A stretch of 64,000 nucleotides of DNA from an uncultured Alphaproteobacteria bacterium (GCA_947588275.1 CANPYJ010000003.1:959-64958); one strand, 5' to 3'. Shown: positions 2,838 to 35,691, counted from the stretch's first letter. The notes: a model not told the origin generated them from the sequence alone. A program made the numbers and translations.

Positions 2838-4085
2838 TTATTTTTTATAAATCGTCCGCGGCGCATTTTGACTAAGCAGCTTCTGCACATAACGCCCCTG
2901 ATACAGGTTTATGCCCAGCGAATTCCCCGCCTCTATCGCCTGCGGATCGTCTATCCGACACAAAATCATCTTGGCGCGCTCGGAACGATTGACATAATCC
3001 ATAAAATGCCCGTCTTCATTGACCACGTCCATAAAACTCGGATGCCAGATAATCTTCATCAAGTCGCAGTCCAAATTGGCGCGGTTCAGATATTTGAGCT
3101 TGTCAACCGTAATTCCGTCTATGCAGACCTTATAGCCTCGCGCCTTGGCAAACGTGCGCGCCAACACAAAGGCCTTGATGTCGCTGAATATGTCTACCAG
3201 CTGCAGCTCCAAAATAATCGTGGAGCGCATCGACACATTGATATTATCGTCAAACTCCAAAAAATCGTCGGACAAGATGGTCGAAACATTGATATTAATG
3301 CTGAAATTGCCGATTAGCGAACCATCGTCATGGCGGCTGATTGTCTCCATTACCCGCTTGTCCAAAGTCTCGCTCAAAGCCAAAAACAACCACGGATTAG
3401 ACGTCAGGTCGACATCAGGCAGCAGCATGTCGCGCAAATCGGGAATAGCCACATACACTTCTTCAAACACGCGCTGCGGAGCCGATTTTCCGATAATGGC
3501 ACAGACCGACTGTCGACGAATAAAGCTTGAAAAATCGGCCACCGACAAAATCTTTTGCACCTTGCCAAGCATTTCAGCCGTCAATCCGCGCTTGGGCCGG
3601 CGAGCCGAATTTCCCGAAGTCGCAGAAACCGCCGTAACCGTCGGTGCAACTGCCGCGGGGTTCTTTTGCGTTTCGGCAAGGTTCTTGACCAACTGCCACA
3701 ACTCCACCGATTGCTGCGGCAGATTATAAATCGTGGCAAACCCGATGCCGGACAAATCGTCGGCGTCCTTAATCAGCGGATCGGTGTGAAACATAAACCG
3801 AACCTTCACCAAACACGACAAAATTTCATCGTGCATCCGCGGAGCAAACACAATAAGCATATCGTCGTTGCACAAAGAAAATATCTTAAAATCGTTGGAA
3901 AGCGTGACAAACATTTCTGTCATGGCGCGCCGAGTCATCACGTTCAGGCTGCCGGCCTGCAGTTTGTGCAGACTCAAAAGCAGAGCTTCGGCCTCAGATT
4001 TTCCTTGCTCTATTTTTTTCAAGAATTCAAATACTTGAAAATCCCGCCGCTCGGAATAATTGCCTTCCTGTGTACCCTCCGTCAT
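2838..4085 (-). CDS. Cytoplasmic protein with degenerate GGDEF-like and EAL-like domains (paralog B)
   Basis: 415 aa with an ATG start. KIFSLCNDDMLIVF aligns to the RxGGDEF strand. FSININVS, IILELQLVD, CIDGITVDKLKYL, LMKIIW, ILCRIDDPQAIEAG and YQGRY align to the EAL-domain blocks NxS, ExTE, DDFGTG, KxD, EGVE and QGY. A paralog lies 4 nt upstream. Confidence 0.55.
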   Translation of the reverse strand: MTEGTQEGNYSERRDFQVFEFLKKIEQGKSEAEALLLSLHKLQAGSLNVMTRRAMTEMFVTLSNDFKIFSLCNDDMLIVFAPRMHDEILSCLVKVRFMFHTDPLIKDADDLSGIGFATIYNLPQQSVELWQLVKNLAETQKNPAAVAPTVTAVSATSGNSARRPKRGLTAEMLGKVQKILSVADFSSFIRRQSVCAIIGKSAPQRVFEEVYVAIPDLRDMLLPDVDLTSNPWLFLALSETLDKRVMETISRHDDGSLIGNFSININVSTILSDDFLEFDDNINVSMRSTIILELQLVDIFSDIKAFVLARTFAKARGYKVCIDGITVDKLKYLNRANLDCDLMKIIWHPSFMDVVNEDGHFMDYVNRSERAKMILCRIDDPQAIEAGNSLGINLYQGRYVQKLLSQNAPRTIYKK

Positions 4086-4089
4086 CTCT

Positions 4090-5367
4090 CTATCCTAGCA
4101 TTTTTTCCAGATATTCCTTTTGCGGACATTGTTCGCGGAATTGTCCGGCCACCAACCGCCGCCGTTTCAAACAATCAATCGCCGTACAGCCTTTTCCATT
4201 GGGGCATTGCGCCTTAATCAGCGAGATTTCGAGCGTGTCGATATACGGCCCCTGATAATTTTTGAGCCCATACCCCATGCCGAACCGCAACGCCTCAGCA
4301 TCTGAACATTTGGCCAGAATGACATTGTCAACGCCAAACTCGGCAATAAATTTTTTGAAATCCTGATTGTTGGTATTATGAGCCGTCAGCGGCTCCCAAA
4401 AAAACTTGACCATGTCCGGCTGCAGCCGCATCACATTGAGCATATGCAAAGTTTCTATCGACATTCCGTCCAGCAAAACCAAATGCCCTTTTTGGTGCAG
4501 CAGATTCCGTACTTCAAAATACTGGTTCAGATTGTTCACGACATCCATCAGCTGCACTTCGGCAATGAGCGTATGCCCCTTGCTCAAGAACTTTTGCTCA
4601 AACGCCGTAAACTCCGGCGAATAAATTGTCGTCAAATTCAAATTCAAGCCGATTCGCTGCGGCCACCTGACAATATCGGCCGTCTCAAAAGAGGCCAATG
4701 TCTTTTTGTCGAGTTCCTGAGACAAATACAAAAAAAGCCATTTGTTTCCCGACAAATCGATCATCCGGTCATAGCGCCGGCTCAAGTCTTTGACCGCGAC
4801 AAAAAATTCCTGAAACAATGTCTTAAAGTTATTGGCGCCCTCAATCCGCATAGCGCTCTGACGTTTAATTATCTGCGCAATATCAATGTTATTGAGGTGG
4901 GCAACCACGCCGTCAATCTCCGAGGCATCAACCGGCCGCCGCAAATCTTCATCTTCGGTCGTGGCGCCTTGCGTCATCAAGGCTTCAATTTGCTGATAAA
5001 CTTTGGCAAAATCATCGGGAAAGTCATAAAGATGGGTAAATTCGGCGTCGCTGTCGCCGTTGAGCAGCGGGTCGGAGGCCAAGCCCAAGCGCAGTTTCCC
5101 GACCGCGTCTTCAACCTTTTCCGGCATAATATTGCGCCCCAAAATCACAAAGTCTCCGTTGCTCAGCACCACTACCGTTCCGTCAGCGGCATTGACCATA
5201 TCTTCAAACATCTTGGCAATGATTTTCACAAACGAAGCGTGCCGGTTTTTGGGTTTGAGTTTAGAGACCGCCACATACAAAAGCGCATAAGCCGACTGGC
5301 TGCGGGAAACCCTGTTAAGAGAATCCAGCAAATATTTTTCCGCGCCGAAATTTCCGCCCTTGGCCAT
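4090..5367 (-). CDS. Cytoplasmic protein with degenerate GGDEF-like and EAL-like domains plus a C-terminal 4-Cys tail (paralog A)
   Basis: 425 aa. LNR...ALLYVAVSKLK...VVVLSNGDFVILG follows a GGDEF-like layout. LNLNLT, LIAEVQLMD, LLDGMSIETLHML, MVKFFW, ILAKCSDAEALRFG and YQGPY follow an EAL-like layout. Tail is CPNGKGCTAIDC...C. Confidence 0.55.
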   Translation of the reverse strand: MAKGGNFGAEKYLLDSLNRVSRSQSAYALLYVAVSKLKPKNRHASFVKIIAKMFEDMVNAADGTVVVLSNGDFVILGRNIMPEKVEDAVGKLRLGLASDPLLNGDSDAEFTHLYDFPDDFAKVYQQIEALMTQGATTEDEDLRRPVDASEIDGVVAHLNNIDIAQIIKRQSAMRIEGANNFKTLFQEFFVAVKDLSRRYDRMIDLSGNKWLFLYLSQELDKKTLASFETADIVRWPQRIGLNLNLTTIYSPEFTAFEQKFLSKGHTLIAEVQLMDVVNNLNQYFEVRNLLHQKGHLVLLDGMSIETLHMLNVMRLQPDMVKFFWEPLTAHNTNNQDFKKFIAEFGVDNVILAKCSDAEALRFGMGYGLKNYQGPYIDTLEISLIKAQCPNGKGCTAIDCLKRRRLVAGQFREQCPQKEYLEKMLG

Positions 5368-5468
5368 TACTCAGAGTCGCACCTTTCATTTACATTCTTA
5401 ACCATAATAATCTCGCTTTGGCGCAAGAGCAAGCAAATATCTGCATTTTTCCTTATGAAATATTGTTG

Positions 5469-5497
5469 TTGCGTTTTTATAAACGGACTGATATACT
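5469..5497 (+). promoter_or_regulatory. Candidate sigma70 promoter for the hydrogenase cassette
   Basis: TTGCGT, 17 nt spacer, TATACT. It lies 35 nt upstream of the ferredoxin ATG at 5532. Confidence 0.35.
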
Positions 5498-5531
5498 TTG
5501 GAAAAATAATTTCAACATGATTGAGGGAAAA

Positions 5532-5780
5532 ATGACGGCGCAAATAAAAATTTGTATGGGAAGCTCCTGTTTTGCCCGAGGCAATTCCAAAAACCTGCAA
5601 ATCATCCAGCAGTTTCTGGAAAAAAACGGTTTGGAAGCCGAGGTCGAGCTTTCCGGTTTGCGCTGTTGCGACAATTGTTCCAAAGGCCCCAACATCAATA
5701 TTGACGGCACCGAATACAACAATATTGACAGCGGCACCCTGCCCGACATTTTGGAAAAACATTTCAACCTCAGTCGCTGA
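5532..5780 (+). CDS. Thioredoxin-like [2Fe-2S] ferredoxin (NuoE/HydC-like), 82 aa
   Basis: Start chosen at the internal ATG after a GAGGGA SD. Cys pattern is C-x4-C (CMGSSC) ... C-x3-C (CDNC) with GPNINIDG, as in NuoE-type 2Fe-2S proteins. Confidence 0.7.
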   Translation: MTAQIKICMGSSCFARGNSKNLQIIQQFLEKNGLEAEVELSGLRCCDNCSKGPNINIDGTEYNNIDSGTLPDILEKHFNLSR

Positions 5781-5814
5781 TACGAACCTGCCTTCCTTGG
5801 GAATTTGAACAAAT

Positions 5815-7599
5815 ATGTCAAATCGAGACTATCCGCTTCATACTGTCAAAACCGATTGTCAGGACTGTTACAAATGCGTGCGCCGCTGCCCTGTCAAAGC
5901 CATCAAAATTGAAGACAATTCGGCCATGATTGTGCCGGAGCTCTGCATTGCCTGCGGCATCTGCTATCGGGTTTGTCCGGCCAAAGCCAAGCAACCGCGC
6001 GGCGACCTGAGCCGCGCCAAATATCTGGTCTCGCAGAACAAAAAAATTTATGTTTCGCTGGCGCCTTCATGGATCAGCGAGTTTCCCGAATATACCGCCG
6101 GCCAGCTGATTGCCGCCATTCGCCGCCTTGGCATCTGCGGCGTCAGTGAAACCGCCTTGGGCGCCCAGGAAGTTACCAGCCGGACGGTAGAAATTTTGCG
6201 TGATTCGGCCGCCAAAGGCGAAAACAAACTTTTTATCTCCACCGCCTGTCCGGCCGTGGTTGAATATGTCGAAAAATACCTGCCCGATCTGGTACCCTGC
6301 CTCACGCCGGTATTGTCGCCCCTGCTGGCTCACTGCCGAATAATCAAAGAAAAATTCGGACCCTCTGCCGAAACCTTGTTTATCGGCCCCTGCATTGCCA
6401 AAAAACTCGAAGCCGACCGCCATCCGGACCTTTTGAGTTTGGCCATCAGCTTTGCCGACTTGCGGCAATGGCTCAAGGAAGAAAACATCAATCCGGCAGC
6501 GCTCACGCCGGGAGTATACGACACTTTTGTCATCGACAAAGCGCAGGAAGGCACCATCTATCCGCTAGAAGGCGGCATGCTTGAGACGATTCGGGCTTAT
6601 CGACCGGACAATGTCTACGCCGCGCAGATTACCGGCATTATCAACATCCAAAAAGAATTGACCGCTTTTGACGCGAATTCTTTAGACCGTCCCGTATTTT
6701 TGGAATGTTTGGCCTGCTATGGCGGATGTTTGGCCGGCCCCTGCACGGTCAACCGGCAAGCCGGTCTGCAAAAACGCCTGCAAATTGTCAATCAGGCGCC
6801 GTTTAGCGAAGAATCCGGCAAACGCCGGCCGCAATACAACATTTTTGCGGCCTACACGCCGCAACCTCTGGCCGAAGAAGAACAGTTTTCGGACGCCGAT
6901 ATCCGCCAAGCGCTGATGAAAATCGGCAAATTTTCGGTTGAAGACGAACTCAACTGCAACGGTTGCGGCTATGACACCTGCCGCAATTTTGCCCGTGCTC
7001 TGCTTTGCGGCAAAGCTGAGCCCGAAATGTGCGTTTCGCACATGAAACAACAGGCGCAGCGCAAAGCCAACGCTCTTATCCGCTGCATTCCGTCACCGAT
7101 TGTGATTGCCGATTCCAAGCTCAACATTATCGAGTATAACGACCTTTTCCGCGATGCTTTCTGGAACGAGGAAGAACACGCCGAAATATACGATTACAAC
7201 AATCTCCGCGGCGCCAACCTGCGCGACTTCGTCAGCTTTACCAACCTTTTCTCGGCCTCGCTGGAACTCAAACAAGACATTCACAAAGAACATGTCCGGC
7301 AAGACGACAAAACTTATGACGTGGTTGTCTTTAACATTGACAACAAACAAAGCGTGGGCGGCATTATTGAAGATGTAACCAACGCCGAAGTGCACAATGA
7401 GCAGATTGCCGCCAAAGCGCGCGAAGTCATTCGCAAAAATCTGGCCACCGTACAGCAGATTGCCTGCACTCTGGGTGAACACATGGCTGAAACCGAAGTT
7501 TTGCTGCGTTCCATTGCCAAGGACTATGCGGCGGAAGACGCCGAAGCCGAAAAACTAAAGTTCCATACCAACTCGACTGAAGGAAAGCTGTCCCGATGA
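5815..7599 (+). CDS. hydS: Putative sensory [FeFe]-hydrogenase (HydS-like): 2x[4Fe-4S] domain, H-cluster domain, 4-Cys motif and PAS-like tail
   Basis: Two CxxCxxCxxxCP motifs at the N-terminus. H-domain motifs are FISTACP (variant of TSCCP), FIGPCIAKKLE and LECLACYGGCLAGPC. These are followed by CNGCGYDTCRNFARALLC...C and a PAS-like C-terminus. Confidence 0.8.
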   Translation: MSNRDYPLHTVKTDCQDCYKCVRRCPVKAIKIEDNSAMIVPELCIACGICYRVCPAKAKQPRGDLSRAKYLVSQNKKIYVSLAPSWISEFPEYTAGQLIAAIRRLGICGVSETALGAQEVTSRTVEILRDSAAKGENKLFISTACPAVVEYVEKYLPDLVPCLTPVLSPLLAHCRIIKEKFGPSAETLFIGPCIAKKLEADRHPDLLSLAISFADLRQWLKEENINPAALTPGVYDTFVIDKAQEGTIYPLEGGMLETIRAYRPDNVYAAQITGIINIQKELTAFDANSLDRPVFLECLACYGGCLAGPCTVNRQAGLQKRLQIVNQAPFSEESGKRRPQYNIFAAYTPQPLAEEEQFSDADIRQALMKIGKFSVEDELNCNGCGYDTCRNFARALLCGKAEPEMCVSHMKQQAQRKANALIRCIPSPIVIADSKLNIIEYNDLFRDAFWNEEEHAEIYDYNNLRGANLRDFVSFTNLFSASLELKQDIHKEHVRQDDKTYDVVVFNIDNKQSVGGIIEDVTNAEVHNEQIAAKAREVIRKNLATVQQIACTLGEHMAETEVLLRSIAKDYAAEDAEAEKLKFHTNSTEGKLSR

Positions 7600-8771
7600 G
7601 CGATTCTTTGTTTATAGAAATCGGCACCGCGCAACAGCAGAAATACGGTGAGGACTGTTACGGCGACACCATATATTCCAAAAAAATACCGGATGAACGC
7701 CGTATTATCTCGATTTTGTCCGACGGCTTGGGCAGCGGCGTCAAAGCCAACATTTTGTCATCCATGACCACGCGCATGGCCATGAAGTTTGTAGAAAGCA
7801 ACATGGAGCTGGCGCATTCGTCCGACATTATAATGGATGCTCTGCCCATATGCCAAATCCGCAAAATCAGCTATGCGACTTTTTCGGTTGTTGACACCGA
7901 GCTCGATGGCAAAACCCGCGTATTTGAAATGGACAATCCGCCGTTTATGATGATTCGCAACGGTCGGCCGGTCAATGTGCGTTGCCGTGCCATATCTTCC
8001 GAAAAATGGAAAAACCGCACAATCAATATCTCGCAGATAACCAATCAGGAAGAAGACCGCCTGATCCTCATCTCGGACGGCGTCAGTCAGGCCGGCATCG
8101 GCAATCATAAATACCCGCTCGGCTGGCAGCGTCAAGGATGTCTGGACTTTGTATTGGAAAAAATCCGCAAAAATCCGCACGTCTCGGCCGCCGAACTGGC
8201 GCAGAACATTGTCGGCGAAGCGCTGAACAAAGAGGTCAACCGTCGTGCCGGTGACGACATCAGCTGCGTAGTGCTGTATTTTCGTAAACCGCGCAAACTT
8301 CTGGTTTTGAGCGGCCCGCCGTTTGACGAAAGCCGCGATCGGGAATATGCCGAACTGGTGTCGGATTATGACGGCAAAACCGCTATTTGCGGCGGCACTA
8401 CGGCGAACATCGTGGAACGCGAACTGTGCCTCAAATGTGTCATCGACAAGACCTCTATTGATCCTAATATTCCAATGTGTTCAATTATGGACGGCGTCGA
8501 TTTGGTCACGGAAGGAATTTTAACCTTGACTGATGTGTACCGTATGCTAAAAGAAGGCATAGACACAGACCGAAACAACGGCGCCACGCGGTTGGCAAGA
8601 CTGCTTTTGGACAGCGACCGCATAGATTTTGTGGTCGGCACCAAAATCAACATTGCCCATCAGGATCCGAACTTACCGATGGAACTGGAAATCCGCCGCA
8701 ATATTATTAAAAATATCATTCGTATCCTGCAGGAAAAATACCTCAAGGAAACAAGTGTCAGATACATTTAG
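7596..8771 (+). CDS. PP2C/SpoIIE-family Ser/Thr phosphatase with an uncharacterised C-terminal domain of about 160 aa
   Basis: ATGA overlap with the hydS stop. ILSDGLGSGVKANILS and LILISDGVSQAG ... GDDISCVV are the PP2C metal-binding Asp blocks. Confidence 0.8.
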   Translation: MSDSLFIEIGTAQQQKYGEDCYGDTIYSKKIPDERRIISILSDGLGSGVKANILSSMTTRMAMKFVESNMELAHSSDIIMDALPICQIRKISYATFSVVDTELDGKTRVFEMDNPPFMMIRNGRPVNVRCRAISSEKWKNRTINISQITNQEEDRLILISDGVSQAGIGNHKYPLGWQRQGCLDFVLEKIRKNPHVSAAELAQNIVGEALNKEVNRRAGDDISCVVLYFRKPRKLLVLSGPPFDESRDREYAELVSDYDGKTAICGGTTANIVERELCLKCVIDKTSIDPNIPMCSIMDGVDLVTEGILTLTDVYRMLKEGIDTDRNNGATRLARLLLDSDRIDFVVGTKINIAHQDPNLPMELEIRRNIIKNIIRILQEKYLKETSVRYI

Positions 8772-8785
8772 AAAGGACTGGAGCC

Positions 8786-9052
8786 ATGAACAAAATCAAA
8801 ATCAGAATTTGTGTCGGAACTTCCTGTTTTGTAATGGGATCGGCGCAGATACAATCGCTAGAATTTAACGCCCCGGCCGATATCGCCGACCATATTGAGA
8901 TTGTAGAAGAGCGCTGTATGGGCTTGTGCCGCGAAATCGCAGTCAAGCATAATCACGGCCCTTTCGTTTTTGTAGATGATGAATTGATTGAAAGCGCTAC
9001 ATACGAAAAAGTTGTCGCCAAAATCCGTGAAAAATTAAAAAAAATATCATAA
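8786..9052 (+). CDS. Thioredoxin-like [2Fe-2S] ferredoxin, 88 aa (paralog of 5532..5780)
   Basis: IKIRICVGTSCFVMGS ... ERCMGLCRE gives the same C-x4-C ... C-x3-C layout. GGAG SD present. Confidence 0.7.
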   Translation: MNKIKIRICVGTSCFVMGSAQIQSLEFNAPADIADHIEIVEERCMGLCREIAVKHNHGPFVFVDDELIESATYEKVVAKIREKLKKIS

Positions 9053-9067
9053 GGCCTTATAAGAACG

Positions 9068-10528
9068 ATGTTGATACCTAAAAATAACGCCAACTTAATG
9101 AGAACAAAAATTTTAGTCCGGTTGGCCTCCAGTTATCTGGAAAACAAATTTGCCGAAGCAGACCGAATCCCGCTTGAACTCCGCCCCAAAGACGGCGAGG
9201 TCAGCCGCTGTTGCGTTTATAAAGACCGCGCGGTTCTCAAATACCGTTGCATGGCCGGCTTGGGACATTGTCCCGACGAAGAGACCGACGAGCTGACCAC
9301 CCTCAAGGAATATGGCCAAAAAGCTCTGGAACGGCGTGCGGCACCCAAAAACAAACTTTCGGTCATCGACATCGCTTGCTCTGCCTGCATCAAATCGCAA
9401 TACGTCATCACCAACGTCTGCCGCGGCTGTTTTGCTCAGCCCTGCCGATTGAACTGCCCCAAAGAAGCCATTTCAATTGTCAACGGGCAAGCTCACATTG
9501 ATCCGTCCAAATGCGTTAACTGTGGCAAGTGTTATGAAGTCTGTCCCTACCACTCGGTCGTCAAAATTCCGGTTCCCTGTGAGGAAGCCTGTCCGGTCGG
9601 CGCCATCAGCAAAGACGAGTTCGGCAAAGAGCATATTGATGCCGAAAAATGCATTTCCTGCGGCCGTTGTCTGGCTTCGTGCCCGTTCGGCGCGGTAGTC
9701 GAACGTTCGCAAATGATTGATGTGATGCGCGAAATCAAAGAGACCGACAAAAAGGTTGTGGCCATGCTTGCGCCGGCTGTTGCCGGACAATTCTCCAGCT
9801 CTCTGGAACATTTGGCCGGCGCGCTCAAAGCTTTCGGTTTTGCCGATGTTGTGGAAGTTGCGGTTGGTGCCGACATCACCACGCAAAAAGAAGCCGCCGA
9901 ATTTGTGGAGCGTATGGAAGCCGGCAAACCGTTTATGACAACCTCTTGCTGTCCGGCTTATTATCGTGCGGCACAAATTCATATTCCGGAAATCCGCCCG
10001 TTCGTCTCAGACACCAAAACCCCGATGTATTACACCGCCGAACTTCTCAAACAAGAACATCCCGACTGCGTGGCTGTCTTTATTGGCCCTTGTTTGGCCA
10101 AACGGGCCGAAGCCGAGTACGACCCGCATGTCGACTATGTGCTCACGTTTGAAGAATTAGGCGCCATGTTGGTGGCGGCCGGCATCAATGTTGATGATTG
10201 CCCGGAAGTTTCGTTTGCCCAAGTTTCGCATGCTCAGGGACGCCAATTTCCGATCAGCGGCGGCGTTGCCGGTGCAGTGGCCAGTCTGGTGGGCAGCAAA
10301 GTCGACATTCGCCCCGAAAAAATTGACGGTCTCACCAAAGATAACATCAAGCTGCTTAAACGCTATGCCCTAAAAGGCGGTGAAAACAACATGCTTGAAG
10401 TTATGTGCTGCGAAGGCGGCTGCGTTTCGGGTCCGGGCTGCATTGCCCTAAGCAAAAAAGCCGCGCGCGCAGTTGAAGCCTATGCCCAAAGCGGCGATTC
10501 GCTGACCGTTGACAAAAAAGCCGAGTAA
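9068..10528 (+). CDS. [FeFe]-hydrogenase, monomeric group-B type (catalytic paralog)
   Basis: N-terminal Cys-rich region, several CxxCxxCxxxCP ferredoxin motifs, and H-cluster motifs TTSCCPAYY, FIGPCLAKRAEAE and EVMCCEGGCVSGPGC. Confidence 0.8.
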   Translation: MLIPKNNANLMRTKILVRLASSYLENKFAEADRIPLELRPKDGEVSRCCVYKDRAVLKYRCMAGLGHCPDEETDELTTLKEYGQKALERRAAPKNKLSVIDIACSACIKSQYVITNVCRGCFAQPCRLNCPKEAISIVNGQAHIDPSKCVNCGKCYEVCPYHSVVKIPVPCEEACPVGAISKDEFGKEHIDAEKCISCGRCLASCPFGAVVERSQMIDVMREIKETDKKVVAMLAPAVAGQFSSSLEHLAGALKAFGFADVVEVAVGADITTQKEAAEFVERMEAGKPFMTTSCCPAYYRAAQIHIPEIRPFVSDTKTPMYYTAELLKQEHPDCVAVFIGPCLAKRAEAEYDPHVDYVLTFEELGAMLVAAGINVDDCPEVSFAQVSHAQGRQFPISGGVAGAVASLVGSKVDIRPEKIDGLTKDNIKLLKRYALKGGENNMLEVMCCEGGCVSGPGCIALSKKAARAVEAYAQSGDSLTVDKKAE

Positions 10529-11668
10529 TCACTCTTTGCCGATGTTGATGTTGCGGTTGATGTTGACCGAAAGGATAATTCCAAATCCGGCCATCACCGA
10601 AAGGATGACCGTGCCGCCATATGAAATCAGCGGCAAGGGCACACCGACAACCGGAATCAAACCGAGCACCATTGAGATGTTAATCATAACATACAAAAAA
10701 TAATTGGTTGCCAACCCGATTGCCGCCAATTTGCCGAAATAATTGGCACTCCGCAGCGCAAAACCGAAACTATAGGCAATCAGCAGCACATTGAGCAGCA
10801 CCACAAAAACGGCACCGATCATTCCAAACTCTTCCGACAACATCGTAAAGATAAAATCGGTGTGTTTTTCGGGCAAAAAGTTAAGATGGCTTTGCGTGCC
10901 CTTCAAAAAACCTTTACCAAACATTCCGCCGGCTCCCAACGCGATTTTAGACTGGATAATATGATATCCGGCACCCAGCGGATCACGTTCCGGATTCAAA
11001 AAAGTCAGCACCCGATTTTGCTGATATTCATGCAGCAGTTTCCAGACAATCGGCAGACTGATTAGCCCGCCCAGCAGCACAATGCCAAACTTCCACAACT
11101 GCACGCCGATGGCAAAAAACATTGCGCCGGCCGTAAAGATAAGCATCAGCGCCGTTCCCAAATCAGGCTGCGTCAACACCAAAAACGCCGGAAACATCAC
11201 CATTAAAATCGGCGCAATAATCCCTTTGATCGATTCGATGTTTTGCAGCGAAGAAGAGTGAAAATAGCGCGCCAAAGCCAACACCAAGGCAATTTTCATC
11301 AATTCGGACGGTTGCAATTTTATAAATCCGAGATTAATCCAGCGCTGCGCTCCCATTCCGATATGTCCGCCGATTTCCACCGCAATCAGCAGTCCCAGCG
11401 TCACAAAATAAAAGACATAGGCATAACGCATAAAAAACCGCACGTCTATCAGCGCCAAGGTCAGCATCACGCAAAGCCCCAAACCAAAGCGCAAAAGCTG
11501 TTGCAAAGCCCACGGATGCCAGCTGCCGTTGGCGGCCGAATACAACATAACCACCCCGAGCGAGGCCAAAATCAAAATAATCAAAATGTAAGCCATACTC
11601 AAATTTTGCAGCTTTTCGCGAAAAGTCGGCGGTTGGTTTTTAAAACTGGTTTCATAAAACTTATACAT
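10529..11668 (-). CDS. rodA: Rod-shape-determining SEDS glycosyltransferase RodA
   Basis: About 10-TM FtsW/RodA/SpoVE protein (QPSELMKI, PEKHTDFIF, GLIPVVGVPLPLISYGGT) immediately downstream of PBP2. Confidence 0.9.
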   Translation of the reverse strand: MYKFYETSFKNQPPTFREKLQNLSMAYILIILILASLGVVMLYSAANGSWHPWALQQLLRFGLGLCVMLTLALIDVRFFMRYAYVFYFVTLGLLIAVEIGGHIGMGAQRWINLGFIKLQPSELMKIALVLALARYFHSSSLQNIESIKGIIAPILMVMFPAFLVLTQPDLGTALMLIFTAGAMFFAIGVQLWKFGIVLLGGLISLPIVWKLLHEYQQNRVLTFLNPERDPLGAGYHIIQSKIALGAGGMFGKGFLKGTQSHLNFLPEKHTDFIFTMLSEEFGMIGAVFVVLLNVLLIAYSFGFALRSANYFGKLAAIGLATNYFLYVMINISMVLGLIPVVGVPLPLISYGGTVILSVMAGFGIILSVNINRNINIGKE

Positions 11669-20666: not shown

Positions 20667-22235
20667 ATGGTACGCTTAAATGTTTTCGTTGCTATGTTAA
20701 TGTCTGTCGTTCTTTTGGCAACTTCTTGCTCGAAAGACGATGAATTCGTTAATCTGTCCGCCAACGGATATGTTAACGAATATGGTCAGGATCCTGAAGA
20801 TCCTAGTTATTCTTTTTTTACGGAGCATGTTGACGTTGTTGCTGCAGATACACTGTGGGATAACCACAATGCTTGGGTGGTCGACAACCTCAGCCAAGAA
20901 GCTTCGGCAAAACAAGAATACAGTGCCAAATATGCAGCGAAATACGATTCTATCGTTGCTGTAGATTTTGGCGCTGTAAAAACCCTCGAAAATCTCACGA
21001 TAGCTTATAAGAATGGCTACTTCGATGTCAATGGCAACACTATTACGGCATCGTTGGAAATGGTCAAAGCTCCTGAAGAAGTCTATTTTAGCCTTAACGG
21101 GAAAACTTACAGCTATCCGAAAGATTTGAAAATTTGCCAGCCGACGATTACTCGTCTGGAGACCGGCAAAGCAAACGGCGACAAACTCAATGGTAACATT
21201 GTAGTTGTTGTCGATGGTGAAGAATACAGCCTGTCTGTTGAATTCATCATTGATGAGGGTGCAGAGCCGCAGGAGCCGGAACATAACTACGGTTATGAGT
21301 GGGACGACCACGCAACGCTGACGGGTGAAAATGAAGCTAGTGTTAACATTTATCCTACTGTGGATGGTGAACGCACTGGAGACGTTGAAAGCCTGAAAGC
21401 AAACGTATCTTTCACATTAAAAGCCGGCGCCGAAATTGTTAAAGAGTCAAAGGAAACTTTAACTCTTTATAACACAACGGCAAACCTCACTTCGACGAGC
21501 GCATCGTTCAAATATCAATTAGGAGGAGAATCCTTCTCTGATAATTGGACGGTAAATACGCCTGCCGAAGTTACCTTCGTTCTTCCGAACGATGAAACGA
21601 TTAGTCTTCCTTTGAAGGCTAATTATGAAGTTCGTTCAGAAGGACTTAGCCGCAACGGTGAAGTTTACAGCAACAACGCTTCGTTGTACGCTGACAACTT
21701 CAAAGTTGATTCTGACGTGCAGATTATAAGAATCAGCACTCCGGAACCGGAAGAACCGACCTACAAAGGCTACAAAGTAGCTTATGCAGATCAGTGGGCT
21801 ATCACCAGAATTTTCAATCAGGCAGGCAACGCCTCTTTGGTTGTTTTGGTAGGTGCTCTGGAGAACATTGAGAATGGTGACATAGTTGCCGTTCACTATG
21901 TTCTGGAAGGTTCCAGCAACCAACTTCCGGATCAACTTGAAAAAGTTGGCAAACCGGCTGACGGTAGTCTGCCGTTCAGTATGCGTTTCAATTCCGCAGC
22001 AAATCGCTGGGAGTATGGAATGCAGATGGGAACCAACCGCGATGTGAAACAGTCTACTCAGTTCGCTTATTGGAACTGGAGCAAGACTGCAACACAGTTG
22101 ATGTCCAACACCACCGTAACCGACTTGCTCGGCGAAGGTATCGTGTGGTACAACGACGGTCGTGTAGCCCAAAACGGCAAATTGTCTTTCTCATACAAGG
22201 GACAGACCATCGTTATCGTTGACGACGTTAAATAA
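20667..22235 (+). CDS. Surface-type lipoprotein, function unknown (Bacteroidota-like signal/lipobox)
   Basis: Signal peptide ending LLATSC followed by SKDDEF. No SD upstream. GC is lower than the neighbours (about 43% versus about 50% in 60-nt samples I counted). I recognise no family. Confidence 0.55.
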   Translation: MVRLNVFVAMLMSVVLLATSCSKDDEFVNLSANGYVNEYGQDPEDPSYSFFTEHVDVVAADTLWDNHNAWVVDNLSQEASAKQEYSAKYAAKYDSIVAVDFGAVKTLENLTIAYKNGYFDVNGNTITASLEMVKAPEEVYFSLNGKTYSYPKDLKICQPTITRLETGKANGDKLNGNIVVVVDGEEYSLSVEFIIDEGAEPQEPEHNYGYEWDDHATLTGENEASVNIYPTVDGERTGDVESLKANVSFTLKAGAEIVKESKETLTLYNTTANLTSTSASFKYQLGGESFSDNWTVNTPAEVTFVLPNDETISLPLKANYEVRSEGLSRNGEVYSNNASLYADNFKVDSDVQIIRISTPEPEEPTYKGYKVAYADQWAITRIFNQAGNASLVVLVGALENIENGDIVAVHYVLEGSSNQLPDQLEKVGKPADGSLPFSMRFNSAANRWEYGMQMGTNRDVKQSTQFAYWNWSKTATQLMSNTTVTDLLGEGIVWYNDGRVAQNGKLSFSYKGQTIVIVDDVK

Positions 22236-22357
22236 TCCAGCGAAATAAAAAATTTAAAATCAATCAATTTCAATAGACTTAAAACCCCTATTACATGGAT
22301 AGGGTCTCCGTCGAGTCTCCCAGCGTTTGGGTTCTTAGACGGAGAAAATTCAACATT

Positions 22358-23044
22358 ATGAAAAATTTAAAAAATACTTTAGCAGTGATCGCATTAACAA
22401 TAGTTTCTATAGTAGCTAACGCTCAAGATGGCAAAGCCGTCTTAATGAATGGTAATCATCATTTCTTTGGCGCTGTCAAAGGAGGAGTGATTTCGTTCAG
22501 CGAAAGCACCATGGGCGAAGCCGGAATAGAAGCTGGTTGGACGCTTGGTCGTTGGCAACTGGGTGCTGAATATGGGCATACTTTTGGCAAGGACGAAGAA
22601 GACAGATCACACGCCGGGTTATTCGGACGTTTCAGCTTGGTGGGCAACCCCAACGCAAAAGTACGTCCGTATGTAGGTCTTGGCGCAGGTATGGGTTCTC
22701 AACCTCGTTATTCGTACTACGGAACCGCCATTGACGGTAAGGGTACAAATTACGATGTAAACGTTGACATGGTCACGTTTGCAAAAGATTACAACTGGAA
22801 TTTCCAGTGTAATCTTGGAGTTAAGTTGGACTTCATTATCAGCCGGACCGTTACGTTGGCAGCATATGCCAATGTAATATATAACCCAAATGAAGGCGAT
22901 CTGAAGGAGATTGCCGCCACTTCGTCGAACATGGACCTTCCGCAAGGATGGGAAATTTCAACGAAAACCGACCTTGAACAAATCAGCCTTGACGCTGACA
23001 AGATCGGTTTCAATGCCGGAGTAACAATCTCATTCAGATTCTGA
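22358..23044 (+). CDS. Outer-membrane beta-barrel protein (OMP_b-brl / porin family)
   Basis: Signal peptide MKNLKNTLAVIALTIVSIVANAQ, alternating strands, PYVGLGAGMG block, C-terminal GVTISFRF. No SD. Confidence 0.65.
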   Translation: MKNLKNTLAVIALTIVSIVANAQDGKAVLMNGNHHFFGAVKGGVISFSESTMGEAGIEAGWTLGRWQLGAEYGHTFGKDEEDRSHAGLFGRFSLVGNPNAKVRPYVGLGAGMGSQPRYSYYGTAIDGKGTNYDVNVDMVTFAKDYNWNFQCNLGVKLDFIISRTVTLAAYANVIYNPNEGDLKEIAATSSNMDLPQGWEISTKTDLEQISLDADKIGFNAGVTISFRF

Positions 23045-23051
23045 ATATTTG

Positions 23052-23096
23052 AAAAGCGCTTTAAACCTTCGGGTTTTTGGCGCTTTTCTTTTTTTT
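23052..23096. terminator. Bidirectional nested hairpin terminator
   Basis: AAAAGCGC...GCGCTTTT outer stem with an inner AAACC-TTCG-GGTTT, followed by a T-run. Lies between convergent genes. Confidence 0.7.
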
Positions 23097-23105
23097 AATT
23101 CTCAC

Positions 23106-23789
23106 TCAAAACAATCCGCGCAAAAACGAAACCAGATAGTCGAAATTGCGTGCGTTCAGATACGATACGACATCCTGATACCGCCACACGCCGCGCCAGC
23201 CTTCGGTATTGAACGCCAACATCGAGCCGACGGCCCACAAGTTGGCACCGGGCAGAAACATTGCGCAAAACTTGTACGAAACCTTGGGCAAATCCGTTTG
23301 TTTTTCATGAATTTGCGAGCCTACGGTATCCATATGATACCCGATAAAATACCCCATACACCCGTTCAAAATCAGATTCATCGGCGCAAACAGCGTATAA
23401 ATGGAAATGCCAATCATACACACCATCCCAAACAACGGAAAGAAATACGGCGCAATCACAATCAACCAGTTTCCCTTGCCCTCAAACGCCATCTCTCCGC
23501 CGCTGTTGTCGGCCTCAATTCTCATTCCCTTAACCTTATGCAGCGTCAACAGCGCAAAAAACGCGTGCGTCATCTCGTGCGCCGCAATTTCCATAATGGT
23601 TTTGACCGCAGAATCCATCATGCCGCGCGCAATAAAAAACAAGAAAAAGCCGCCCAACAACGCCACATAGGGCAACTTGAAAAACTGAAAATACGAAAGC
23701 GACTGCACATAGGCAGGCAAACTCAGCAGCGAATAAACCGCCGCCGGCCATTTCAAAAGTTCTATCAGTCGGTCAATCAGTTCTCTCAT
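23106..23789 (-). CDS. Polytopic membrane protein with an HExxH motif (M50B-like putative metalloprotease)
   Basis: AAHEMTHAFFALLT within a TM region, about 6 TM segments in total. ATG at 23789 follows a GAGG SD; the track start is an upstream GTG. Confidence 0.5.
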   Translation of the reverse strand: MRELIDRLIELLKWPAAVYSLLSLPAYVQSLSYFQFFKLPYVALLGGFFLFFIARGMMDSAVKTIMEIAAHEMTHAFFALLTLHKVKGMRIEADNSGGEMAFEGKGNWLIVIAPYFFPLFGMVCMIGISIYTLFAPMNLILNGCMGYFIGYHMDTVGSQIHEKQTDLPKVSYKFCAMFLPGANLWAVGSMLAFNTEGWRGVWRYQDVVSYLNARNFDYLVSFLRGLF

Positions 23790-23922
23790 CTCCAACCTCT
23801 GTGCAACTATATCAAATCCAAAAAATTTTTCACACCTTTTCTGCACGATATTAACACTTCTTCAACCCTTCTTGACTTATTCTAAAGACTAATTTATATG
23901 TAAAAGAAACAAGGATGCTGCT

Positions 23923-27893: not shown

Positions 27894-28352
27894 CTATTTG
27901 CTCTCGGAAGCTGCGGCCTCAGCCTTAGCAGCCTCGGCAGCAGCGGCTTTCTCCGCGGCAACGCGAGCCAAATCCTTAGCGCCTTTGGCGTTGACATCAC
28001 GGTCTACCAACTCAATGATAGCCATATCCGCCGCATCGCCATAGCGCATACCGGCACGCAAAACGCGGCAATATCCGCCGTTGCGGTTTTTATAACGCTC
28101 AGCCAGTGTTGAGAACAGCTTGGCCACGATTTCTTCATCGCGCAAAAAAGACAATGCCTGACGACGATTCGCCAGTCCGCCTTTTTTACCAAGGGTAATC
28201 ATATTGTCAACAAACGTTCTCAGAGCTTTGGCTCTTTGAACCGTAACCTTAATCTGCTCATGGTTCAAAACTGCAGCAGTAAGGTTGGAAAACAAAGCTT
28301 TGCGGGCATTGGTATCCATATTCAGCTTAACGTGTTTTACACCGTGTCTCAT
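27894..28352 (-). CDS. rplQ: 50S ribosomal protein L17
   Basis: MRHGVKHVKLN... and GGYCRVLRAGMRYGD, with an Ala/Lys-rich C-terminal tail. ATG at 28352 follows an AAAGGAGA SD. Confidence 0.92.
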   Translation of the reverse strand: MRHGVKHVKLNMDTNARKALFSNLTAAVLNHEQIKVTVQRAKALRTFVDNMITLGKKGGLANRRQALSFLRDEEIVAKLFSTLAERYKNRNGGYCRVLRAGMRYGDAADMAIIELVDRDVNAKGAKDLARVAAEKAAAAEAAKAEAAASESK

Positions 28353-28522
28353 GGCATTCTCCTTTTTCTGTGGCTTGCAAGGCAAACCGTATCAAACCCA
28401 AAGTCTTTACTACCGACAGCTCCAAAGTACGCCCATACATAAAGACTCCATATTCGCCTGAGTTTCTAACACACAAAATCCATGTTTGCAAGCAAAATCT
28501 TATCTAAAAAATTTCAGACTGT

Positions 28523-34588: not shown

Positions 34589-35599
34589 TTAGAAATGTTC
34601 GTCACAACGGCGAATCAATTCCTCAATATTCTCAGGCGGCCATCCCGGCGTATCCATACCCAAATGAATACCCATTTTGGCCAACACTTCTTTGATTTCG
34701 TTCAGAGATTTGCGACCAAAGTTCGGGGTGCGCAACATTTCGGCCTCGGTCTTTTGAACCAAATCGCCGATATAAACAATGTTGTCGTTCTTGAGGCAGT
34801 TTGCCGAACGAACCGAAAGCTCCAGTTCCTCAACCTTTTTAAGCAGATTGCGGTTAAACGGCAGCTCTTCTTTTTCCGACTCGGCCTCTGTCTCAGGCTC
34901 GTCAAAGTTAATAAACGGCTTAAGCTGATCTTGCAAAATGCGCGCCGCAAAAGCAACCGCATCTTCCGGCGTAACCACACCGTTGGTCTCAACCACCATG
35001 GTCAGCTTGTCATAGTCGGTGGCCTGTCCGACACGAGTATTTTCAACCTTGTAAGAAACCTTGCGCACCGGCGAATAAATCGCATCAACGGCAATCAACC
35101 CTATCGGCGCGTCAGCCGGCTTGTTGAGCGCGGCCGGAACATATCCTTTGCCTGTGCCGACCGTCAATTCCATATTGATTTTGGCGCCGGCGTCAAGGGT
35201 GCAAATAAGCAAATCAGGATTCATAATTTCAATATCATGACCATGCTCAATCATTGCCGCCGTCACTTCGCAGGGACCTTCGGCCTTAAGGGTCATTGTC
35301 TTTTGGCCTTCGCTGTGCAAAGCAACCGCCAGTCCTTTGATGTTAAGCACGATATCGGTCACATCTTCCCGCACTCCGGGAACAACCGAAAATTCATGCA
35401 AAACACCGTCAATTTTAATACTGGTAACCGCGCCGCCCTGCAAAGACGAGAGCAAAACTCTGCGCAACGCGTTGCCCAAAGTTAAGCCGAACCCTCTTTC
35501 CAAAGGCTCGACAACGATTTTGGCCTTATTTCCGCCTTCCAAAGCAGAAACATCCAAATTAGTCGGTTTAATAAGTTCTTGCCAATTCTTTTGAATCAC
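34589..35599 (-). CDS. rpoA: DNA-directed RNA polymerase subunit alpha
   Basis: A GTG start at 35599 gives [12 protein letters not shown]..., the canonical alphaproteobacterial N-terminus. 336 aa with the alpha-CTD ([12 protein letters not shown]). The track's extra 27 aa is a read-in. Confidence 0.95.
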
Positions 35600-35691
35600 G
35601 GGAGTGTCCTCTTTTTTACTGCATATGCAAAGTTCAGAAAAACCAGACGACGACAAGGCCGCGCAAGGCCTTGTCCCCATCTGAAGATTTA

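Follow-up and report, generated by a model that had tools for sequence, protein, structure and literature searches.

Among the closest described systems to the locus analysed here are the hfsABCD operons of Thermoanaerobacterium saccharolyticum and Thermoanaerobacterium thermosaccharolyticum, which encode a small protein, a hydrogenase carrying a PAS domain, a serine phosphatase and a group B [FeFe]-hydrogenase (PMC11837493, PMC5707799, PMC8924675). Deletion of hfsA or hfsB in Thermoanaerobacterium increases adhE expression and ethanol yield, with intact hfsC and hfsD being required (PMC5707799), and hfsD alone restores the phenotype (PMC11837493). Here, a five-gene cassette of this kind (genes g1 to g5) is described from a 64,000-nucleotide stretch of DNA, hereafter the window, of an uncultured Alphaproteobacteria bacterium (GCA_947588275.1 CANPYJ010000003.1:959-64958). 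In architecture, the cassette corresponds to the hfsABCD / HydS-HydA2 arrangement, the Hfs likeness being drawn from published descriptions. It shares with the Thermoanaerobacterium operons the gene order and the proposed regulatory role of the B subunit, and differs from their published description in an extra [2Fe-2S] gene, g4, placed between the phosphatase and group B genes, and in its host, an alphaproteobacterium that is uncultured, where theirs is a thermophilic Firmicute. We regard it as probable that the region is an intact hfsABCD-type operon comprising an output module and a sensor module, in which the putative sensory hydrogenase g2 senses H2, gates the phosphatase g3 and shifts electron flow.

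Three further systems bear on this proposal. In Ruminococcus albus, two reports place a putative H2-sensing PAS hydrogenase (HydS) beside a non-bifurcating, ferredoxin-dependent hydrogenase (HydA2), as here, and propose signalling via Ser/Thr phosphorylation, as would apply to the cassette (PMC5707799, PMC13277313). An adjacent Ser/Thr kinase is reported in the former (PMC5707799), whereas no kinase recurs in the window or immediately beside g1-g2-g3 in 80 related genomes. TmHydS of Thermotoga maritima (group C / M2f) has N-terminal [4Fe-4S] clusters, a C-terminal [4Fe-4S] cluster and a PAS domain in common with g2, together with Ala and Gly at the positions of C299 and M353, respectively, and a small [2Fe-2S] gene in its operon (PMC10055695). 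In contrast to TmHydS, which has Ser at the M497 position and has been characterised biochemically (PMC10055695), g2 has Leu there, a strongly conserved helix after the PAS domain and a gene that overlaps a PP2C gene. TamHydS of Thermoanaerobacter mathranii (group D / M2e) likewise combines Ala at the C299 position with a C-terminal [4Fe-4S] cluster and is putatively sensory (PMC13104023, PMC10407848), but lacks the PAS domain that is present in g2.

A first reading made from the sequence only (the sequence-only reading) had treated the cassette as unusual. This view was not upheld, as the cassette matches the published arrangements above and gut alphaproteobacteria have been known to carry [FeFe]-hydrogenases and hydEFG since a 2016 report (PMC4967309). 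The 'type A' hydrogenase of Azospirillum sp. CAG:239/260 and Acetobacter sp. CAG:977, which belong to the same broad host group as the source of g5, has the architecture also seen in g5, being monomeric, with an extra Cys cluster at the N-terminus, and lacking a small-subunit domain; the available part of that report does not mention any sensor hydrogenase or PP2C linked to it (PMC4967309). The cassette is ordinary for the lineage of the window and for many anaerobes.

All five open reading frames (ORFs) are intact and co-directional at coordinates 5532-10528 (Table 1), and so display the co-directional order of the hfsABCD type. The spacers measure 34 nt (g1-g2), -4 nt (g2-g3, an ATGA overlap), 14 nt (g3-g4) and 15 nt (g4-g5), which agrees with the earlier description of five co-directional genes with spacers of 34 nt or less and one ATGA overlap. 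A Shine-Dalgarno-like site, GAGGG, lies 8 nt ahead of the g1 ATG at 5532. No Rex-box-like site was found in the intergenic region 5368-5531, and the window-wide count of such sites is at chance level; nor were any informative inverted repeats found upstream of g1. A promoter and terminator scan of 5200-10800 returned counts at the level of shuffled sequence, with no promoter-like match above chance and no internal terminator. The latter result is consistent with a single transcript, although the scan itself is uninformative.

The product of g1 is recognised by PF01257 (32.5 bits versus a Pfam cutoff of 24.8) and by NuoE/HoxE-like models in NCBIfam, and its cysteines 8, 13, 45/46 and 49 form a Cx4C...Cx3C ligand pattern. 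The g2 product matches PF02906 (Fe_hyd_lg_C; E 3.9e-46, 158.1 bits versus a Pfam cutoff of 22.1) and, in its C-terminal Fe-S region, PF04060 (E 1e-8, 35.2 bits versus 23). Against TIGR04105, the NCBIfam model for 'monomeric [FeFe] hydrogenase', g2 scores 174.6 bits, which is under the cutoff of 450. Both g2 and g5 match solved [FeFe]-hydrogenases, and the structures closest to g2 all belong to group A (best E 2.8e-22). Within the N-terminal ferredoxin domain of g2, Cys 15, 21, 25, 44, 47, 50 and 54 are invariant across 30 homologues and Cys 18 is kept in at least 90% of them. The two 4Fe-4S motifs, H-domain and four-Cys motif that had been read from the sequence thus have counterparts in the Fer4, PF02906 and PF04060 matches.

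The H-domain of g2 contains the motifs S-T-A-C-P (residues 142-146), GPC (191) and C-Y-G-G-C (301), and the H-cluster ligands C145, C193, C301 and C305 are all retained. Three positions are substituted with respect to CpI, A144 standing in for C299, G191 for M353 and L299 for M497. The same pattern prevails among 73 g2 homologues: Ala occupies the C299 position in 61, Gly the M353 position in 68 and Leu the M497 position in 58, and the ligand cysteines are retained in 70-71 of the 73. Alteration of the C299, M353 and M497 positions with retention of the ligand cysteines is the sensory signature of TmHydS and TamHydS (PMC10055695, PMC10407848), and both of these proteins show low turnover (PMC10055695, PMC10407848, PMC13104023).

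At its C-terminal side, g2 has a four-Cys [4Fe-4S] domain whose ligands C381, C384, C389 and C406 are retained in 73/73 homologues; a domain of this type is the shared trait that unites groups C and D (PMC13104023). A profile built from 33 homologous tails matched solved PAS domains (Aer2 at 1.6e-5, YtvA LOV at 8e-4 and DcuS at 3.8e-3). The PAS-like tail suggested by the sequence-only reading is accordingly supported by this profile and not by the single g2 sequence, for which Pfam PAS_9 remained below threshold (E 0.16), yet was spanned over its whole model. The helix that follows the PAS domain contains residues that are invariant in 30 homologues from many phyla (I539, Q547, I549, G554, E555, E561, L564 and I567), and is a candidate output or docking element. 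Together, the A144/G191/L299 signature and the PAS-bearing group C / M2f architecture support the assignment of g2 as a HydS-type putative sensory hydrogenase, as its earlier description as a putative sensory (group C) layout had it. Membership of group D (M2e) was ruled out because a PAS domain is present: the approximately 185 residues past the cluster comprise a PAS-like domain and a helix, and PAS is absent from group D. Within HydDB, subgroup C3 is the 'phosphatase-linked' division of group C.

Several variants were observed among the g2 homologues. Those of Bacteroidales (L027, L059, L060, L067, L081, L077, L070 and L073; locus numbering is given below) have Asn at the C299 position, and the two of them that were aligned in full, L027 and L059, carry an insertion of about 30 residues ahead of the PAS domain. 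In L070 and L073 all four H-cluster cysteines are lost and the C-terminal four-Cys domain is retained. An extra pair of g2-like and HydA-like genes in the opposite orientation is found in L027, L073, L081 and L062.

The g3 product matches PF07228 (SpoIIE) with 39.9 bits (Pfam cutoff 25) and gave an AlphaFold2 (AF2) model with a predicted local distance difference test score (pLDDT) of 89.9. A Foldseek search with this protein retrieved SpoIIE (5mqh, E 8.8e-15) as well as 3pu9, the RsbU domain of Rv1364c and RsbX, while the family profile aligned with SpoIIE motif by motif (E 2e-17). Residues D24, D43, D161, D220 and D221 are retained in 79-80 of 80 homologues. With all PPM acidic motifs kept, g3 most likely encodes a catalytically competent SpoIIE/RsbU-type PP2C phosphatase. 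It has the fold and all the metal-binding motifs of SpoIIE, RsbU and RsbX, and differs from these proteins in that its predicted regulatory domain is a C-terminal, Rossmann-like orphan rather than N-terminal, and in that there is no STAS/anti-sigma partner nearby.

This C-terminal domain (CTD) was modelled on its own with a pLDDT of 92.6, and G266, T268, E306, D341 and H355 within it are invariant in 80/80 homologues. Foldseek searches of the PDB with the CTD gave generic Rossmann-like matches only (best E 7e-3, TM-score 0.35), searches of the PDB by sequence gave no match, and the single Pfam hit, NBD_C, was sub-threshold (E 0.13). The possibility that the CTD is a fused STAS-like substrate domain was discarded, as no STAS protein was present in the top 50 Foldseek PDB matches. 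Clustering at 50% identity leaves 1487 representatives of the family that combines PP2C and CTD, E being <1e-30 for 327, and nearly all members are of approximately 390 amino acids and align over their full length. As judged from the models, the CTD with its invariant polar pocket is an orphan domain and a trait of the whole family rather than one specific to the window.

Downstream of g3, the g4 product is a second PF01257 protein (27.3 bits versus 24.8) with cysteines 9, 14, 44 and 48 in a Cx4C...Cx3C arrangement, and is most likely the partner of the group B hydrogenase g5. The g5 product scores 527.6 bits against TIGR04105 (cutoff 450), its residues 6-459 aligning to positions 3-459 of the 462 in the model, i.e. 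over the full length, and also matches PF02906 (E 1e-58, 199.3 bits versus 22.1). By profile hidden Markov models, therefore, both large proteins of the cassette belong to the [FeFe]-hydrogenase family and g5 to group B, as the sequence-only reading had proposed. The motifs quoted there were located in g5 as TSCCP (292), GPC (340) and MCCEGGC (446); they supply the H-cluster ligands C295, C342, C448 and C452, the proton-relay cysteine C294 and the P3 methionine M446, and these six residues are retained in 40/40 homologues. Position 340, the M353 equivalent, is Gly or Ser among the 40 homologues, and CpIII also has Gly at the M353 position (PMC10055695). Close homologues of g5 are named 'monomeric [FeFe] hydrogenase [Alphaproteobacteria bacterium]' by the Prokaryotic Genome Annotation Pipeline. 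By analogy with described group B enzymes, we infer that g5, a group B1 enzyme, would evolve H2 and depend on ferredoxin (PMC12578642, PMC8924675); in gut bacteria, group B enzymes have been shown to act as fermentative hydrogenases that produce H2 (PMC12578642).

Next, the distribution of the cassette was analysed by scanning one genome per species, which yielded at least 594 stretches confirmed as PP2C relatives; loci with L numbers (L002 and so on) are members of the best 80 of these. The three top loci are from alphaproteobacterial metagenome-assembled genomes (MAGs) at 68-84% identity, and the remainder are at 42-53%. The best 80 of the at least 594 loci include Hydrogenedentes, Gastranaerophilales/Melainabacteria, Planctomycetota, Acidobacteriota, Victivallales/Lentisphaeria, Verrucomicrobia, Bacteroidales, Treponema and other spirochaetes, Syntrophobacterales, Fibrobacter, Bacteriovoracaceae and further alphaproteobacteria, and so span more than 10 non-Firmicute phyla. 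No Firmicute is among them, and the label 'clostridial-style', with a distribution mainly in Firmicutes and Thermotogae, does not fit these 80 loci.

The genes g1, g2 and g3 occur together in 66 of the 70 related loci with enough upstream sequence, a g1-like gene lying directly upstream of g2 in the same number. Of 63 loci with enough downstream sequence, 34 have g4 and g5 after g3 and 26 have neither. The order g1-g2-g3-g4-g5 thus recurs in 34/63 related genomes, far beyond chance. Wherever a group B gene follows (34/34 loci) g4 is present, and g5 without g4 was seen in none. Genes resembling NuoF, NuoE and long HydA proteins are found in 10-12 loci, mostly those that lack g4 and g5. The cassette is therefore made up of two modules, a portable sensor triad (g1-g2-g3) and an exchangeable hydrogenase module (g4-g5), because the triad is near-universal while g4 and g5 are optional. 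In Hydrogenedentota, group C3 sensors have been described adjoining A3 bifurcating hydrogenases (PMC11406978). In public MAG annotation (GenBank MBE6448235.1 / MBE6448238.1), the sensor appears as '[Fe-S]-binding protein' or '4Fe-4S binding protein', and the name '4Fe-4S dicluster domain-containing protein' is given to some group B homologues; the sensor and phosphatase families are labelled only as 'Fe-S binding' or 'SpoIIE family', which leaves the operon with effectively no annotation in this lineage.

In the best 80 loci, the commonest non-hydrogenase neighbours of the cassette are Rex-like genes (14 loci) and adhE (13 loci). Several loci have cassette-adjacent, co-directional genes for AdhE (approximately 870 amino acids) and a Rex-like repressor (approximately 210 amino acids), examples being L031 (12877-16107), L075 (12897-16100), L072 (5156-8367), L045 (4651-8043) and L004 (5310-7940). 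A second alphaproteobacterial clade has co-directional g1..g5-adhE-rex operons, and within the clade of the window L004 carries adhE directly upstream of g1. The R. albus HydS/HydA2 cluster also has a Rex-type regulator. The adhE and Rex-like neighbours in the related loci mirror the hfsB-adhE link of Thermoanaerobacterium, which is genetic there and one of gene neighbourhood in the relatives of the cassette. Radical SAM genes resembling hydE/hydG are found directly upstream of the triad in L017, L020, L024, L032 and L036, with hydF-like GTPase genes also upstream in L020, L024 and L036. These maturase-linked loci are from four Acidobacteriaceae and one Dongiaceae (L032), and there is no such link in the window.

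Taken together, the following scheme may be proposed. The g5 hydrogenase, with its [2Fe-2S] partner g4, would dispose of reduced ferredoxin from fermentation as H2. The g2 protein, with H-cluster ligands kept and the proton-relay cysteine lost, would react slowly with H2, g1 serving as its small [2Fe-2S] partner, and the state of g2 would be relayed via the PAS domain and terminal helix to g3. The phosphatase, whose gene is translationally coupled to g2, could then dephosphorylate a Ser/Thr phosphoprotein encoded elsewhere, such that a build-up of H2 would change how reducing equivalents are shared between the evolution of H2 and alternative sinks, for example AdhE and the Rex regulon. Coupling between g2 and g3 is supported by their ATGA overlap and by the co-occurrence of g1, g2 and g3 across more than 10 phyla.

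A number of points weigh against this scheme. It builds on direct observations of gene identity, motif state and domain architecture, of modularity and of the statistics of gene neighbourhoods; the binding and sensing of H2 by g2, the contact and coupling of g2 with g3, the sign of the regulation and the target are inferred. The redox state of TamHydS's C-terminal cluster is unchanged by H2 (PMC13104023), and the simplest picture of signal relay is therefore weakened. A 2026 Thermoanaerobacterium paper raises the possibility that HfsABC is itself a functional hydrogenase and calls the mechanism unknown (PMC13277313), which agrees with the earlier remark that the output of HydS-type sensors has not been worked out. 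In addition, the output link to adhE and Rex is borrowed from relatives, because the window has no adhE, no rex and no Rex-box-like site upstream of g1. Finally, the 253 genes that immediately flank the triad in the 80 genomes include no recurrent gene for a STAS protein, an anti-sigma kinase or a Hanks kinase.

One alternative, which the substrate preference of the nearest phosphatases would suit, is conventional partner switching, in which g3 would act on a phosphorylated STAS anti-anti-sigma factor, with a GHKL kinase/anti-sigma factor elsewhere in the genome and a sigma factor as the output. This is a more specific version of the explanation preferred here, and in that form we consider it rather unlikely. 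In both sequence and fold the PP2C domain of g3 is closest to SpoIIE, the RsbU domain of Rv1364c and RsbX, enzymes of a type whose known substrates are phospho-STAS proteins, and the genome is visible here as 64 kb only. Nevertheless, STAS and anti-sigma kinase families are absent from the 25 most frequent families listed for the 253 flanking genes and from the scanned ORFs of the window; the four HATPase_c matches among the flanking genes occur mostly with HisKA or response regulators, and g3 has no N-terminal regulatory domain, unlike RsbU, RsbP and SpoIIE, but a unique C-terminal one. The HfsC-type phosphatase might be a self-contained output of H2 signalling that needs no dedicated kinase or STAS protein, the CTD pocket binding a nucleotide or phospho-metabolite or even acting as a kinase. 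We hold this to be unlikely; were it so, the pocket could merge energy or redox state with the H2 signal, the CTD could supply the missing kinase activity in a bifunctional enzyme, by analogy with HprK/P or AceK, and a metabolic protein or a regulator, for example the hydrogenase, AdhE or Rex, would be the target. If true, this would be a new signalling architecture common to anaerobes of more than 10 phyla. Improbable still further is a single multi-subunit 'Hfs' hydrogenase with g2 as a second catalytic or electron-confurcating subunit and g3 as a structural or activating one. The tight, translationally coupled operon and two dedicated [2Fe-2S] proteins would suit such an enzyme, as would the history of an operon first named as one hydrogenase, an idea that persists for HfsABC in 2026 (PMC13277313). 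However, the triad occurs without g4 and g5 in 26/63 genomes, often beside a different hydrogenase type; g2 lacks the proton-relay Cys and Met residues for fast catalysis (PMC10055695); the catalytic Asp residues of g3 are strictly conserved, which would be needless in a purely structural subunit; and hfsB deletion increased, rather than decreased, hydrogenase activity (PMC5707799).

With regard to origin, the sequence-only reading placed the cassette in an alphaproteobacterial backbone and considered it probably acquired. The backbone is borne out, the LepA protein of the window being 88-93% identical to proteins labelled 'MAG: ... [Alphaproteobacteria bacterium]' and the closest cassette loci coming from MAGs with the same label. 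The supposed acquisition is not, since the comparisons indicate that the cassette is resident and inherited within the alphaproteobacterial clade of the window, because of synteny in the nearest relatives, the LepA, g2 and g5 identities and host-like composition. Synteny of the cassette with two divergent upstream genes is seen in L002 and L003, and MAGs with LepA at approximately 91% identity have g2 at 73-75% and g5 at 84-85%. More broadly, homologues of g2 and g5 with 65-87% identity are labelled as Alphaproteobacteria, Azospirillum sp. or Rhodospirillales MAG, with up to 423 contigs for one protein; in one MAG the g2-like and g5-like proteins are three accession numbers apart, pointing to an identical gene order there. 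The GC content of the cassette is 0.508 (window 0.490) and that at third codon positions (GC3) is 0.57-0.61 in the three large genes, 0.59 in g1 and 0.43 in g4. Codon-usage distances are 0.11-0.12 for the large genes, against a housekeeping range of 0.05-0.14, with g1 (0.18) and g4 (0.16) falling outside. On composition, recent horizontal gene transfer was rejected, as the three large genes lie within the housekeeping range in GC, GC3 and codon usage. That a clostridial cassette was recently transferred into a typical alphaproteobacterial chromosome is thus very improbable, also given the synteny, the homologues in many alphaproteobacterial MAGs and the lack of Firmicutes in the best 80 of at least 594 loci. 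In its favour, the examples characterised in the literature are from Firmicutes and Thermotoga, and the downstream flank (rodA) is not common to L003 or L004. Moreover, in a distance-based neighbour-joining tree of g2+g3 (100 bootstraps, no Firmicute references), the clade of the window and a further two alphaproteobacterial clades, each supported at 100%, are joined in 0/100 bootstraps, the latter two being placed near Melainabacteria. The nearest outgroups, at 43-49% identity, are bacteria of the Planctomycetes-Verrucomicrobia-Chlamydiae group, Melainabacteria, Hydrogenedentes and Acidobacteria. This polyphyly of alphaproteobacterial copies indicates lateral transfer only at depth.

The partial pressure of H2 governs the products of fermenters. 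In the human gut, H2 is now considered to come mainly from group B hydrogenases (PMC12578642). The window itself adds nothing categorically new, and the comparative leads come from its relatives. The triad of [2Fe-2S] protein, HydS and PP2C is a portable module of more than 10 phyla; it pairs with either group B or HydABC-type hydrogenases; it lies repeatedly beside adhE and rex; and its phosphatase has, family-wide and not only in the window, a conserved, unexplained second domain with no recurrent kinase nearby. These leads narrow the search for the signalling target.

Table 1. Position of the cassette genes, their domains and the upstream region in the window.
Feature	Coordinates	Strand	Description
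g1	5532-5780	+	82 aa; small thioredoxin-like [2Fe-2S] protein (NuoE C-terminal type); HfsA position
g2	5815-7599	+	594 aa; putative sensory [FeFe]-hydrogenase of HydS type; architecture of group C / M2f; HfsB position
g2 N-terminal 2x[4Fe-4S] ferredoxin domain	5842-5994	+	Fer4 matches; Cys 15, 18, 21, 25, 44, 47, 50, 54
g2 H-domain	6040-6756	+	PF02906 over residues 76-309
g2 C-terminal four-Cys [4Fe-4S] domain	6949-7035	+	PF04060 over residues 379-407; C381, C384, C389, C406
g2 PAS-like domain	7069-7386	+	residues ~419-524; profile of 33 homologous tails
g2 helix after PAS	7396-7539	+	residues ~528-575; candidate output or docking element
g3	7596-8771	+	391 aa; predicted SpoIIE/RsbU-type PP2C phosphatase with orphan C-terminal domain; HfsC position
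g3 PP2C catalytic domain	7608-8285	+	residues ~5-230; motifs GD24, SD43GLGSG48, SD161G, D220D221
g3 C-terminal domain	8286-8768	+	residues 231-391; predicted Rossmann-like alpha/beta fold
g4	8786-9052	+	88 aa; second thioredoxin-like [2Fe-2S] protein
g5	9068-10528	+	486 aa; monomeric [FeFe]-hydrogenase of group B1; in the place of HfsD / HydA2 / 'type A'
Intergenic region, divergent upstream gene to g1	5368-5531		presumed operon promoter region, read from sequence

The remainder of the window is of housekeeping character, with mutY, mreBCD-mrdA-rodA, miaA, ddl, secDF, rplQ, rpoA, secY and ribosomal protein genes as well as tolB, ruvX, lepA, deoB, topA and dprA. No Ser/Thr kinase, STAS protein, Rex or hydEFG was found among the scanned ORFs of the 64-kb window, as had been noted before, and no adhE; Rfam and tRNA scans of the window found nothing. 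The stop codons of g5 (ending at 10528) and of convergent rodA (beginning at 10529) abut with zero spacer, and a terminator-like hairpin was not found there. Divergent from the cassette, at 2838-5367 on the minus strand, are two paralogous ORFs of 415 and 425 amino acids with 26% mutual identity (E 3e-42). Both have EAL-domain matches below threshold only, with EAL catalytic motifs that look degenerate, and no NCBIfam match; a search run with the 415-residue paralogue gave no PDB match. The pair was considered as possible partners of the cassette and set aside; it is kept beside the cassette in L002 and L003 and not in L004, where adhE occupies its place.

Two further features of the window were observed. 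The genes rplQ and rpoA are normally adjacent, and here rplQ (27894-28385, minus strand) lies approximately 6 kb from rpoA (34589-35680, minus strand), the interval containing a murC-like ligase gene that scores below the TIGR01082 cutoff, a TetR regulator gene and several ORFs without a family match. At 20667-23885 on the plus strand, three successive ORFs of 522, 249 and 278 amino acids, which have no Pfam or NCBIfam match, show a GC content of approximately 0.45 and a GC3 of approximately 0.45, compared with approximately 0.54-0.66 in other genes of the window, and this trio may be a foreign island.

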